Shown: positions 1 through 10,200, counted from the first letter of the stretch. The stretch is 64,000 bases of DNA from an uncultured bacterium (GCA_964482725.1 CAYZYT010000005.1:88133-152132), one strand, 5' to 3'. Numbers and translations: made by a program. The notes: generated by a model not told the origin, from the letters alone.

Positions 1-3000
1 TTGGCGGCGCTGTACTGGAAGGCAATGCTCAGCTTGGTGCGAGACCCGGTCACGGTCACCACTTCCACGAACTGGTTCAACAACGCCGAAGCGGTAAGCA
101 GTTTCTTCGAATCGACTCCGTCCTCGACAACCGCCTGCAGGACGTCATGATTCGTTTTGAACGAATCCGCCGCGATACCAAGCCGACTCATTTCATTCTC
201 AACAAGCCGTTGCAGCAGGCTTGCAACATCGTCGCCAAAAGACAACTCGAACCGGTCTTCTTTGACAAGTTTGCCGAGCTCCGCTTCCACAACCGCCTGA
301 TCGCTCTTCTTCGCGACCACAATAAATTTGCTTCCCGCGGGGCTCAATTTCAGACGCTCAGCGATGTGCGGGGCATCAAAACCGTCGGCCGGGTTGTACT
401 CGATAATATGACTTCCATAGCCCTTGAAGGACGGCAGAACGTTTGTCTTGATCCCGAGGATATCCATGATCGACAGGATCAGTCTCGACTCGATTGCGTT
501 AATCCTCGGATTAACGATCGACGGGAGAATTTCAGTTTCAAATCTTGTCGCCTCAACAGATTTCGCCGCCGCGACCGCCGCAGTCTTGATTTCCGAACGC
601 TTCGCCGTGCCAGTGAGCTCCGGAAATTCCGCTTTCGTACCCTCGGCCACATTCATCTTGGGCTGCGCTTGTTCCCCGAGCTCGGTCTTTAACCGGTCAT
701 AACTCATCACAGGCTGCTCGGTGTAAGGCTTGTCGATATGATGAGGGATCTGGTCCTTGACCGCCCGGAGATCGATCCCCATCGCTTCTGATCCTTGCAT
801 CAAGGCTTCCTCCAGGGAAATGACCTCTCCCGTCCCGACATGGATGATCAGATTCTTCTTGAACGACTGGGTCAGGAGCCGCGCCAGCACCATCGTCAAA
901 GCGCCGACAGGCCCCGCGAGCTCAAGAGCGGCCATAAATTCTCTCATGACCTGGGTTGTATGAAGCGCCATGAGCTTCACCTTGCCCTGGATCAATTTCG
1001 TCAGATCATCCAGATTATTCTGGAGCACATTATTGGGATGCATCCCTTTGCCGAAGACATTCACAAAACGGAACACGATCCCCTTGCCTTGAGAAAGGCC
1101 CAGCACATCTTTTTCAGGAAGAAGCTTGGAGATCGCATAGTTGCCAAAAACAAGGGCCAGCGGATATTTGACTTCCAGGTCCTTGAGCGCTTTATCGAGC
1201 TCCGGTTGATCCTTCAGATTGTATTCCTTGACCTTCGCCGCCCAATAAGGCGTCAAACCGTCGCCAACGATCTGGAACAGATTTTCCTGGATCGCGGGAT
1301 TGTCCAGCCTCGCGACCCGGGTCTGTTCGAGAAGTTCCTTCGTGAACTGCTCGGGAGCCATGGTGGCCCGGCCGCTCACATACTCTGCGACATAAGCATC
1401 AAACTTTCCGGTAAGATCATCCATGAATTTCTGGGTCGTGACATCGAACGGGATCGGCGTTTCCTCCGTCACGGGCTCTTTCATCGGTTCCTTGAAGAGC
1501 GGGTTCAGGGCGAAGATGGCCTGGCTGGAGCTGTAGGCCATCGGGACGCCGAGCTCCTTGGCAATCCGCGCGATCAGCTTGGTATAGAACACATTCACAA
1601 CATAGGTCCGGACGATGAACTCGGAGGGTGATTCTTTTTCGACAGAACCTTTCGTCACAGCTTCGCGGCGCGTGCTGGTCTGCGCCGCAAGATGATAGAT
1701 CGCTGTCGCCTTGCCCATGAGCTGTTTCATAGCTTGATAAGCAGTACCGGTCTGATCCATCTTCCGCGGGTCCATGCGGTCGCCCATATCCACGAGCACT
1801 ACACGTTCCGCAAGCCCTGCAGCCTTCAGATCTTCATAAACACGCCGCAGGTTCGCGATATGGGTCTCCGGTCCCTGGGAGCGCAACGGGATCGCAACGC
1901 GCTGTCCTTCAGCACGCACCAAAGTATCGAGCCAATGAGAACCGATCATGCCGGTGCCGCCGAGGACAATAGGGCCTTTAAAGTCAGACTTCACAAAATC
2001 TTCAAGACTCACGGTCGGGAGATCCTGATCTCTCAATTCAGCGCGGCTTACGGCCGAAAAATCTTTTACTTTTGCCTGGGTGAGCACCGCCTTAACGCCG
2101 CGAGATAGCTCATCAACCGTTTGGCTGTTCAAATTTTCGCTTGAAAACGCCTTCGCCTCGACCTCAGTCACAATATCCGAATCCGCCAGAGGCATCAGCT
2201 GCGCAAGGGTCATACCTTCATAAAGAATGACCGATTCGGCCCAGGACTGACCATTTCCCACCTTTTGCCATATTTGAGTACCCGTCGGAATTTGGATCAG
2301 GACGGATTGGACACTTGCCTGTTTTGGGATGAACAGCTGCAACAAAAAGTGGCCGCTCCACGCATCAAACCTCTGACCCGGAACGCGGACACTCACGGCG
2401 GCAGCACCCTTGGGAACCATCGCCTGGCCTGAAACATTTTGAACAAAACCGTCAACGATGCTCCCCTCTTCCAGCACGGTCGCTCCGTCCACGATCGCAT
2501 TGGCCTCGATCTTTACATTCTGTGCGATCCTCACCTTAGGACCGATGATCCGGCCGGGAAAACGTTTCCTGATGTCTTCGGAAACCTTGTCGGCATACCA
2601 CAGATCCCCCTCTTTCCCTTCAAGATCCGGCACGATCCCGATCCCAAGACGGCGGCGCATGTTTTCATTCTTATAAAGCTCCTGGGTGATCTCCCAGGTT
2701 TGTTCCGGTGTGTTCGCGTGCAAATAGATCGCATCAGCCCCTAGGTTCACAAAACTCATTCCGAAGGCCTTGTTTGCATCGTCCGCCATCGCTTTGACCG
2801 CATCTAAAAGTCCTGGAATATCGCCAAGATCAGGGTGTGTCATGTCCCCGCTGGTGCGTCGCTTACGATATTCTTCCGGATATTGTTTGCCGAATGTGGC
2901 CGCTTCAAACAAAGCTTCCACAAAATTAAGCGCCGGATGACCCGGGAATGCGGCATCGATCTCTTCTCCCCTTTCGAGAAGCCAGAGATAGGCCGGCCAT

Positions 3001-7200: not shown

Positions 7201-10200
7201 CCGTGCATCAGCGCCAGCTTGGCCTGCAGGAAGCTCAGATAGATCGGCGCGCTGCCATCGTTGGGCACGATCTTGAGCATCTTGTAGCCGGCCTTCGGCG
7301 TTCCGCCAAACCGCGAGGCAGCTCCGGCCGCAGCAATGATCGAAACCAGATGGTTCATGGCCTCTTCTCCGGCCGTTGCAAAGCCGCTGAGAGCTTCCGA
7401 AGGAATGACCCGGCGACCCTTATAATCCTGCCCGGGCATATCCTCGCCGGAATAGATCTCCTCAACCGATCCGATGACTGCCTTGTTAGCTTTGCGCGGC
7501 GACGGCAGGACTGTCAACTTCACCGCTTTGCCTCTCCCGGAAAGCGGTGGTTGATTGTAATAGAGATTTTTTTCCTTCGAATAGGTCCCGGCCGCAAGCC
7601 CTTTCAGGAACTCGGCTTCACGGTCATCGTCGAAACCGAACTGCGTCATGATGAGGATCCCGCGGAGCTGATTGATCAGCTTGATCTCGCCTTCGGTCAA
7701 TCCCTTCGTCTCGCCCACCAGATCCAGCACTTCCATCGCCAGGGTATATTCAACGGCATCCGGCTCAAGCGTAAGATTACCGACTCTCGGACCGGTCTGA
7801 GTCCCGGCGATCGAGATCGCACGGAGCAGCTCATTCAGTTCCGCCTTCGGTAATTCCTGACCTTTAAGGCCGGCCTTCATTGATTCCAGAAGCTTGACAG
7901 CCTTCGCGACTTCAGCCGCCGGGACCGCAGGCGCCACAAGGTCCGGTTGGAGCGAGAAATTCGCGGCGGTCAGTTCCACCGACGGATTGCCGGCGAAGGT
8001 GACAGTTTGGCCGGCATAGAATTGCTCGAGCGCCACATTGCCAAGCCGGGTCAAAGGATCGGCCGCCACGGCATCCAGATCGATCTCTTCGAGGTTTTTC
8101 ACGACCTCTGCATCCAGCTTCGGCTTCAGGGCCTCCATAAGATTGTAGGCGCTGGCCCGGACATACTCCGCAGACTCCCACGTTTCAGCAGCATAGAACC
8201 CCTTGGTCATCGTCCCCTTATCAAGGTGGGAATCGTAATACGGCTCCTTAGTTTCAAGAATCCTGACGAGTTTTGAAAGCGAGGTGATAAGGCTATCGAT
8301 CTCGATCTGGATCGGGTACGGGATGTATTTGTTACCACCGGAGGTCATGGGGAACTGCGTCTTAAGCTCTTGAACTATGGCAACAGCCGCTTTTGCCGAG
8401 GCAATGGCCGCATTTACATTTTCTTTATTGCTTGAGCCTGCAATATTAATGACAGCCTGTTTATACAGTGCGTCCAGCTTCGGTTTCATATCGGAGCGGA
8501 CGTAATAAGTTCTGTTCCCGATCTTCACATAGGTGCGGGTCCCGGCAACGACTTTATGGACGCGAAGTGCCTGGCCGGCCGCATTGGTAAAAGTAAGCGT
8601 GTCTTCATCCCCGGCGGCTTTCTCGACCTTCCCTTCAACCGTCGTCCGGACATTCACGAAACCGAGGGAACTTCGGACGATCAAGCTCGCCTTCGCAAGA
8701 AGATCCTCCACCGAATTCCACTCCAGGCTCGCGGCCTTAAGCGCCTCGACCACTTCGCCATCGGGAAGATATTTCTTCTCCGGCATCACCGTCACGATCC
8801 CCGCCGCTTCCAGCACATGGACCGTGTGATTCGCTCCGAGGATCGCTCCGACCGCCGCGATCGGCGTGTTGGGCTTGCCCATGAAAACAACGACCCGTCC
8901 GGCCGAGATCATCGTCCAGTGAGGGATCTGATCGGCCTGAAGGACCTGAATGAGCTTCATCGCGCTTTCGGCGATCTGCTTTCCATTCACACCGGTAAAC
9001 ATAACATGGGAGACCGGCCAGTCCTTCACGTGAGAAAGGGTCACAGCACCGTTCATCCCGATCTCATCCGCGCTGCGCTCGAGCCTCTCGAACGGCAATT
9101 TCTCCGTCGTCACATGCATGTGCAGCTGCTCGGCGGTGTACCACTCCGTATTCTGAAGGAACTTCATCCGGCGGTTCTCCGCCGCGATCGCAAGCGCCGT
9201 CTCCAGATCGCCCTGCGTAAGGATATTCGGGCGGATCGTCTCATCATCCGAGATCAGAAGCGTATGGAAAGGAACGGTCAGGTCCTGGGGCGCGACCATG
9301 AAATATTTCCGGCCGAACGCCTGCGGGATCCGGAACAGAATGCCGCGCGCATCAAAATCCTTCTGGAACTTTCTGAAATAAAATCTGTTGAGATCCGTCG
9401 GCCGGTTGGGTTTCAATTTGTTGGTATTGGGCTTGCCCTGGGAAGTCTTGTCGATCGCGAGCTCAACTTTCCCCTTCGGCTCCCGTTTCGGGATCAATGA
9501 TTCCTTCGACTTGACATACGGGTTCGCTTTCCACGCCGTTTCAAAGGCCGCTTCAAAACCATCCAGCGAAACCTCTTTCGCGGCGTTATCCAGCACCGTC
9601 ACTAATTGCGGAAGAGCGCTAAGATAATCGATGGCGGACTGCACTTCAGGACTCCTAGGAACCGGCACGGACCACGGATCTGGCGTACCGTCTTTGGCTT
9701 TATGGTTGGGCCAGGCCTCCAATTTATCCGCTTCGCCCAGCCAGATATTAAACCACGCGACGGCGTCCTCGTCAGAAAGGGCTGCGATGTCCGCGATCTC
9801 CGGGATATAAGAGGCATAGCCAACGACTTCGATCTCGGTCCCCGTGTACGCAGCACCAGCGTCTTTTTTAAGATCGGTCACTGCAACAGCCGCGCCCTTG
9901 GCTTCAAGCCCAGGCATCGTTACCACAAGAATCCTCAACTTTTGCCCCGTGGGCAGTTTCGGCAATCGCGGCAGCAACAATTTCCCGGAATTCCGGATAT
10001 TCTGTCCGCTCGTCGTTGATTGGTCTTCCATGATATCCACTTGAACCCGGTCGAGTCCCGACTCCATCACATTCTTGAAATACTGAGCTTCCGTCATGCG
10101 CCCCCCCTTACCATCGGGCTCATTGAGGGCAAGAAGCACCTTCTCGGGCGGCCCATACTTGCCGCTGGTTACGATCAGCATCCCCGGATTTTTTTCTTTT

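Follow-up and report, generated by a model that had tools for sequence, protein, structure and literature searches.

Candidate nucleotide-sugar enzyme modules in the C-terminal part of a giant protein encoded by an Omnitrophota genome

The giant reading frame and its C-terminal modules

Here, we report the domain layout of a giant open reading frame (ORF) in a 64,000-nucleotide stretch of DNA from an uncultured bacterium (GCA_964482725.1, CAYZYT010000005.1:88133-152132), referred to below as the window. LepA places the host in the Omnitrophota: it shares 96% identity with LepA of 'Omnitrophica bacterium RIFOXYB12_FULL_50_7' and 95% with its counterparts in two further Candidatus Omnitrophota metagenome-assembled genomes (MAGs). 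In six-frame translation, one minus-strand frame is stop-free from position 36350 to base 1 of the window, i.e., 12,116 codons; its first ATG, at 36323, is followed by a signal-anchor-like helix and opens a single giant ORF (1..36323, minus strand) with at least 12,107 codons in the window, which exits the left edge. This ORF was omitted from the ORF listing, which excluded frames leaving the window. An earlier note on this DNA had placed a TAA just after the peptide SQNHIHFKL (around 4230) and a separate in-frame ORF downstream of it. That TAA is out of frame, the codons cat-ttt-aaa-ttg reading H-F-K-L; without an in-frame TAA there is therefore one giant ORF and no second one. The enzyme modules, previously divided between the C-terminal ~1,100 residues and the supposed second ORF, fill at least the last ~2,460 residues of this ORF within the window. 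We consider it somewhat probable that window 1-7400 (minus strand) encodes the C-terminal enzyme block of a single giant protein that is anchored in the membrane and belongs to the multi-enzyme class, with five modules forming a nucleotide-sugar line. The domains of the block are very divergent, yet recognisable; their order is UDPGP-type, NAGPA-like, GalT-branch HIT, FKP-type with a beta-helix and extended SDR, followed by a domain of unknown function. Module coordinates below are on the minus strand, and residue numbers with the prefix C refer to the translation of window 3-7523 (minus strand).

The peptides on which the earlier note had relied were all found in one minus-strand frame, within ~20 nt of where they had been placed: IIAAAGAASRFGG at 7302-7340, then TPKAGYKMLKIVP at 7263-7301, IGNIDNV at 6897-6917, SQNHIHFKL at 4257-4283, LHMHV at 9111-9125, GGTGMIGSHW at 1932-1961 (previously ~1950-1975) and YAISK at 1125-1139. 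The four modules proposed from them (UDPGP-like, HIT/GalT-like, left-handed beta-helix and SDR) are upheld by profile and structure searches, so that the motifs are more than chance resemblances. Search method mattered here: word-index homolog searches were nearly blind, returning one match for a 2,507-residue piece and none for modules 2 and 3 together or for the U_C alignment described below, and an exhaustive HMMER search of C601-1800 against 1.84 billion representatives returned 203 relatives and split the piece into three units. A phmmer search of the whole piece against the PDB returned LpxA alone (E=0.97), and NCBIfam was uninformative on the block apart from the SDR.

Module 1 (6126..7376; C~50-466) is a UDPGP-family-like sugar-1-phosphate nucleotidyltransferase, as indicated by Pfam and by homology to a protein termed P0001. 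The defining motifs of UDPGP proteins are a Gly-rich nucleoside triphosphate (NTP) loop with an Arg, a downstream Lys and a central G-H...N-x-D-N core. On Pfam UDPGP (PF01704; cutoff 22 bits), a 435-residue sub-segment reaches 24.4 bits (E=1.5e-5), a borderline score that falls to 21.3 bits within the 2,507-residue piece. P0001, the lone word-index homolog, is 44% identical over 418 residues, and both the AAGAASRFGG...K loop (AAGAASRFGG-PK) and the GVGHG...IGNIDNV core are invariant between the two proteins. The core aligns to GH...N(I/G)DNL of the UDP-glucose pyrophosphorylases (UGPases) 3GUE and 4R7P; the top three PDB matches of the two-sequence profile are eukaryote-type UGPases, at non-significant E values of 0.4-0.6. 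The next domain, U_A (4923..6092; C~478-867; ~390 residues), is absent from the earlier note's list of modules and is NAGPA-like, i.e., phosphodiester glycosidase-like. The window copy scores 22.3-23.0 bits on Pfam NAGPA (PF09992), under the cutoff of 25 (E=1e-4), with the match covering just ~55 of 169 profile positions; nine of the 11 U_A family members match NAGPA at E<=0.1, the best at E=1.1e-5. The family profile had no meaningful match in the PDB. U_A is widespread in other giant proteins.

Module 2 (3801..4886; C~880-1241) was assigned by family profile to the GalT branch of the HIT superfamily (DUF4922 / Ap4A-phosphorylase type) and carries the motifs CSFC, NISPIE..FLLVPD and GASQNHIHFK. 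Direct Pfam matches fall on the His motif and are sub-threshold, for DUF4922 (16.2 bits, cutoff 23.6, E=0.01) as well as for Ap4A_phos_N (13.5 bits, cutoff 23.1, E=0.05). Among 32 relatives, DUF4922 is matched by 14 and ATP_transf by five, and the family profile matches the yeast Ap4A phosphorylase Apa2 (PDB 4I5T) at E=3.3e-5. The CxxC and HxH (H205, H207) residues are invariant across the alignment of these 32 sequences, and homologs of the module also occur as stand-alone proteins of ~350 residues.

Module 3, or U_C (2124..3776), is a sugar-1-phosphate nucleotidyltransferase of the FKP type (fucose-1-P guanylyltransferase-like) that ends in a left-handed beta-helix; the hexapeptide-repeat block of this helix had been proposed earlier and is borne out at 2424..2564. 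Hallmarks of nucleotidyltransferases are a G-x-G-x-R...K loop, a catalytic Asp and an EKP motif; module 3 shows SGxxxR...K, SIDA and EKP, and G104, R108, K120, D157, E227 and K228 are invariant in a 10-sequence U_C alignment. Its fold matches the solved FKP pyrophosphorylase domain, and the hexapeptide periodicity was recognised by profile or structure search. Pfam Fucose_pyrophosphorylase (PF07959) was matched by just two of 10 relatives, at E>=0.008.

Module 4 (624..1976; C~1850-2300) is an extended SDR, probably of the nucleoside diphosphate (NDP)-sugar epimerase/dehydratase type, and matches Pfam Epimerase (PF01370) at 39.1 bits against a cutoff of 20.9 (E=7e-10). A relative termed P0002 is 44% identical over 550 residues and keeps GGTGMIG, YSSSQ, an insertion of ~100 residues and FGNYxISK. 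Against the PDB, the module 4 profile matched the UDP-glucuronic acid (UDP-GlcA) 4-epimerase MoeE5 (E=1.4e-4), on whose YGVTK the YAISK of the module aligns, and GalE (1e-3). The best NCBIfam match is weak, to the MxcG nonribosomal peptide synthetase (NRPS) reductase region (2e-6), and NAD_binding_4 is matched too. A terminal reductase of the NRPS or polyketide synthase (PKS) type is nevertheless less likely, as the best PDB matches are NDP-sugar epimerases (1.4e-4 to 1e-2; the MxaA reductase reached 0.1) and no NRPS/PKS domains were found. Behind module 4 lies the C-terminal domain of unknown function (3..584), from which the ORF continues past the window. These last ~195 residues have no Pfam or NCBIfam match; their resemblance to the C-terminal end region of P0002 is weak (23% identity, E=0.005), and the domain also follows U_C in another relative, P0006.

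Upstream of module 1, LHMHV had been taken as a second HIT motif. The peptide is present, in a region (8751..9293) that may be a second, very divergent HIT-like domain and carries FMVAPQD...HTLLISDD...AEQLHMHV; its HIT-like nature is marginal, with no Pfam match and a colinear alignment to module 2 (both motifs in register) at 18% identity and E=0.058. Before it comes a DUF218 domain (9915..10268; Pfam PF02698, E=1e-6, 29.2 bits, cutoff 27.6). Because DUF218 and then the possible HIT-like region precede module 1, the enzyme block probably starts ~1,000 residues ahead of where the earlier note began it. Still further upstream is a HEAT-repeat scaffold (11151..12473; HEAT_2 E=3e-50, HEAT_PBS 2e-24), which flanks the last transmembrane (TM) segment at about residue 8205-8241 of the open frame. 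The giant ORF has ~20-24 hydrophobic TM-like segments, which are clustered. Self-BLASTP found no internal repeats, which rules out a tandem-repeat scaffold as the nature of the ORF. Pfam gave zero matches in the N-terminal 4,784 residues. The first ~190 residues (window ~35750-36335, minus strand), which comprise a signal anchor and a small domain, show homology to the start of P0001, a protein of 1,506 residues (L001 9980-10531; 27% identity, E=1.5e-8). Because P0001, which also bears a UDPGP-like module, shares this N-terminus with the giant protein, the finding suggests an N-terminal 'leader' module common to proteins of very unequal length.

Module shuffling in relatives and a motif at the module borders

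P0002 is the contig-truncated C-terminus of a giant ORF in the MAG GCA_043808175.1. It has HIT, U_C, SDR and the C-terminal domain in the same order as in the window, at 41% identity. LepA of this MAG is 95% identical to that of the window, whereas the giant modules are merely 41-46% identical (window 1-4886 against L083 61-5307); the explanation would be either very rapid evolution of the giant gene or paralogy between the two giants. The P0002 ORF ends ~87 residues beyond the last aligned position and ~770 residues beyond the end of the FKP-like module. From the colinearity of the two, the stop codon of the window's ORF is expected a few dozen codons (roughly 15-100) beyond the window edge, probably without glycosyltransferases directly behind it. 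Glycosyltransferase domains beyond the window had been suggested as something to look for; in the P0002 relative, the giant ORF is followed instead by the housekeeping genes for NAD synthase, RsfS and ArgS, with no glycosyltransferases. In P0003 (5,491 residues), U_A, HIT and U_C stand in the same order at 37% identity; P0040 and P0132 have NUDIX in the place of HIT, before U_C; P0006 has U_C and is missing the SDR. At the P0001 locus, a comparable set is split over several ORFs adjoining an 8,407-residue gene. The pattern indicates cassette-like shuffling of nucleoside-diphosphate-sugar-related domains among relatives, with the modules turning up again in many giants.

All five module borders in the window bear the motif R-[SA]-E-x-[RK], with the consensus RSE[VML]R: RSESR between module 1 and U_A (6111..6125; C467), RAEVR between U_A and module 2 (4908..4922; C868), RSESR between modules 2 and 3 (3786..3800; C1242), RAELR between modules 3 and 4 (2031..2045; C1827) and RSEIK between module 4 and the C-terminal domain (585..599; C2309). 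Other copies lie at 10416-10430, 12588-12602 and 16728-16742, and two near 34550-34610 (minus strand), giving 10 copies in the whole ORF against 0.98 expected. The strict form RSExR has five copies in the ORF, against 0.12 expected. In an unbiased scan of all 4-of-5-residue patterns, RSE.R ranks first in the window ORF (five copies, 0.15 expected, p=5e-7) and again first in 48 long relatives (129 copies, 2.8 expected, p~1e-161). The looser form has 174 copies against 14.4 expected in these 48 relatives of >=800 residues and 0 copies in 89 stand-alone homologs of <500 residues. Within the cores of 42 full-length domain matches only two copies were found, i.e., 0.13 per 1,000 residues versus 1.19 overall, a depletion of ~9-fold; a copy stands 3-57 residues ahead of the domain start in 17 of these domains and between -3 and +26 residues after the domain end in 15. 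The codons of the border motif are variable and no Met follows it at a regular distance, which makes it a peptide-level signal; on the same grounds a nucleotide-level element or internal translation starts were rejected. The motif is not universal, because the multi-domain proteins of locus L001 are without copies. The literature searched makes no mention of an RSExR border motif.

Proposed function, known systems and alternative explanations

Taken together, the modules would make up a tethered line for nucleotide-sugar salvage and interconversion. The two nucleotidyltransferases would activate sugar-1-phosphates with NTP, the HIT domain would exchange or phosphorolyse the nucleotide on an NDP-sugar, and the SDR would epimerise, dehydrate or reduce the sugar; the NAGPA-like domain may act on phosphodiester-linked glycans and set free sugars or sugar phosphates. 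With NTP and NAD(P) as substrates, the block would most likely face the cytoplasm, and the upstream TM segments and the HEAT scaffold would keep it at the membrane; its modules would either act fused or be released at the RSExR linkers. Going by the established chemistry of these families, the domain set is best read as fitting nucleotide-sugar salvage and interconversion better than glycosylation or export. Signature residues are kept in the families, i.e., GxxxR...K, D and EKP in U_C, CxxC and HxH in HIT, and TGxxGxxG, SSS and YxxxK in the SDR. Of the earlier interpretation, the part that saw enzyme domains stands: the sequence analysis supports nucleotide-sugar-type enzyme domains in the C-terminal part, hence a protein that is not merely a passive fibre. 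The glycosylation or export machine does not, as discussed below.

Giant ORFs are known in Omnitrophota and have few annotated domains (Seymour et al. 2023, PMC10066038). West-Roberts et al. described TM-rich 'Archaeovorin' giants with HEAT_2, glycosyltransferase, methyltransferase and NUDIX domains (bioRxiv 10.1101/2023.11.21.568195), and a 2026 preprint defined a 'multi-enzyme metabolic cluster' class (class 1) with sugar-metabolism clusters, HIT, NUDIX and HEAT/Adaptin scaffolding, which is read as anchored at the cytoplasmic face (bioRxiv 10.64898/2026.06.07.730766). The protein described here shares with these multi-enzyme giants the host phylum (an Omnitrophota genome), an ORF of >10,000 residues, clustered TM-like segments, a HEAT-repeat scaffold beside many unrelated and divergent enzyme domains, sugar-metabolism and HIT domains among them, and poor conservation between genomes. 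It differs in that starch synthase, GT1, phosphoglucomutase, ROK kinase/hexokinase, methyltransferases, NUDIX and SecA_DEAD, all typical of the published giants, were undetected. The giant protein belongs to this already described class; the border motif and the series of UDPGP, NAGPA-like, GalT-branch HIT, FKP-like and SDR domains, of which we found no mention in the literature searched, are undescribed there. In this way, a stretch almost invisible to Pfam resolves into a coherent nucleotide-sugar enzyme set through exhaustive HMMER searches, family profiles and structure prediction based on multiple sequence alignments.

The single modules also differ from the enzymes they resemble. Compared with FKP, the bifunctional L-fucokinase / L-fucose-1-P guanylyltransferase (PDB 9IIS, 9IIT), module 3 is 13-14% identical and has neither the fucokinase (GHMP kinase) half nor a Pfam Fucose_pyrophosphorylase match. 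Module 2 resembles the GalT-branch HIT enzymes (Apa2 4I5T, DUF4922, GDP-hexose phosphorylases) in its family profile matches and in its HxH core with an upstream CxxC; unlike them, it reads H-I-H-F-K, scores under the cutoffs directly, and is embedded in a giant rather than being a soluble enzyme of ~350 residues. UDPGP, GalT-branch HIT and extended SDR of the epimerase type are the same three superfamilies that co-occur in the Leloir-type nucleotide-sugar interconversion set (UGPase, GalT and GalE). In contrast to such a set, the present block is fused in one polypeptide and contains two extra modules, none of its domains is close to the canonical enzymes, and a sugar kinase was not detected.

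Several observations weigh against the salvage line as drawn above. The window scores for HIT, NAGPA and Hexapep are all under the Pfam cutoffs (16.2 vs 23.6, 23 vs 25 and 13 vs 27 bits), and these three of the five domains were identified solely via relatives or structure. Pfam Fucose_pyrophosphorylase has no match in the window sequence of module 3, module 2 has HxHxK where the family consensus is HxHxQ, and the ~100-residue insertion in module 4 lies between the Ser and YxxxK and makes an atypical Ser-Tyr spacing of ~130 residues. Only U_C has a confident structure model; single-sequence AlphaFold2 of modules 2 and 3 together gave a predicted local distance difference test score of 33. As for sidedness, the TM parity is uncertain and the last TM segment has HEAT repeats before as well as after it. 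A line that is purely cytoplasmic is also at odds with the typically extracytoplasmic location of NAGPA-type enzymes. Work on V. archaeovorus, moreover, proposes an extracellular coat (PMC10066038).

With these points in mind, three other explanations were considered. The giant ORF could be a polyprotein, made as one chain and cut at the R-S-E-[VML]-R linkers into free enzymes or pairs, the giant protein being a delivery or expression format and not the working unit. We regard this as unlikely, if worth serious attention. It would account for a motif that stands at all five borders, exceeds every other short pattern in over-representation in the ORF and in the long relatives, is missing from stand-alone homologs, is depleted in cores and clusters ~3-30 residues from domain ends; conservation at the peptide and not the DNA level, and the swapping of modules as cassettes between relatives (P0006, P0040, P0132), also speak for it. 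Proteolytic processing of giants has been proposed in the literature, where 'information about cleavage points' is said to be lacking. However, Pfam found no protease domain in the giant ORF, the L001 multi-domain proteins are without the motif, the open frame has just five copies in its first 8,640 residues, and a conserved linker could equally serve docking, flexibility or folding. It is with the same reserve that R-S-E-[VML]-R is put forward as a dedicated punctuation signal in a subset of Omnitrophota giants, most interestingly as a protease processing site. RSExR bears on the question of whether the giants work as one chain or are cleaved. If the proposal is true, such ORFs would be bacterial polyproteins cut into single enzymes, here a complete sugar-nucleotide salvage set, and the motif would supply the missing 'cleavage points' for structural and proteomic work on giants. 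RSExR is a concrete candidate division site that could be relevant beyond this locus, and it offers a practical guide to dividing giant ORFs into foldable units.

The earlier idea of a self-contained glycosylation or polysaccharide-export machine seems improbable to us; on that view, one protein would make activated sugars with its modules, polymerise them and export the product. Nucleotide-sugar enzyme domains are indeed fused to a protein rich in TM-like segments, and GT1, glycosyltransferase and starch-synthase domains do occur in other Omnitrophota giants. Pfam over all 12,116 residues, however, found no glycosyltransferase, flippase, Wzx/Wzy, ABC or other transporter or export family, the N-terminal 4,784 residues being without any match, and the ORF of the closest relative ends soon past the SDR and the C-terminal domain and is followed by housekeeping genes. 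Least probable in our view is that the domains are non-catalytic, i.e., relics that bind sugars or nucleotides, or just fold, as structural or adhesive parts of an extracellular predation coat. The divergence is extreme, with scores near or under the cutoffs and modules 41-46% identical while LepA is 95%; the Q-to-K change in the HIT motif and the SDR insertion point the same way, as do the extracellular coat and adhesion proposed in the literature (PMC10066038). Against this, few columns are invariant or nearly so in each family, and these include the nucleotide-binding and catalytic signatures, a pattern expected from selection for catalysis, and the HIT module has its stand-alone homologs of ~350 residues. 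The tethered salvage and interconversion line is the reading we prefer over these three.

Composition, antisense frame and gene neighbourhood

The base composition of the giant ORF is uneven. GC content is ~0.49-0.51 and GC content at third codon positions (GC3) ~0.52-0.56 in the TM/HEAT part (~10-18 kb), and they are 0.53-0.58 and 0.61-0.70, respectively, across most of the remaining ORF; the AT skew flips sign several times within it. This unevenness may reflect a mosaic origin of the modules. Opposite the enzyme block, an ATG-started antisense ORF of 1,160 codons (3528-7010, plus strand) is in exact codon register with the giant gene; over 1,162 codons the sense strand has no TTA, CTA or TCA, ~2.4x the longest gap expected. 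The antisense ORF lacks conservation in the L083 homolog of the gene, where the longest antisense ORF has 398 residues. This plus-strand ORF is most likely a codon-usage shadow; as a real gene it was rejected, given that the minus frame has homologs at 37-53% identity, that the ORF is in register with the stretch poor in TTA, CTA and TCA, and that it is unconserved in the relative.

The first 60 nt of the window have no exact match in genome or metagenome contig collections, and the protein of a neighbouring gene likewise gave no identical match. The genes upstream of the giant ORF encode an alpha/beta hydrolase, an acyl-CoA ligase, a thiolase, a patatin-cNMP protein, an SPOR protein, LepA, an M16 peptidase, TrpA/TrpB and BatD; the neighbourhood is ordinary chromosomal. 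Immediately upstream of the giant gene, a lipid-related cluster (37465-44570, minus strand) comprises the S33 alpha/beta hydrolase, the acyl-CoA ligase, the thiolase and a cNMP-binding patatin-like phospholipase.

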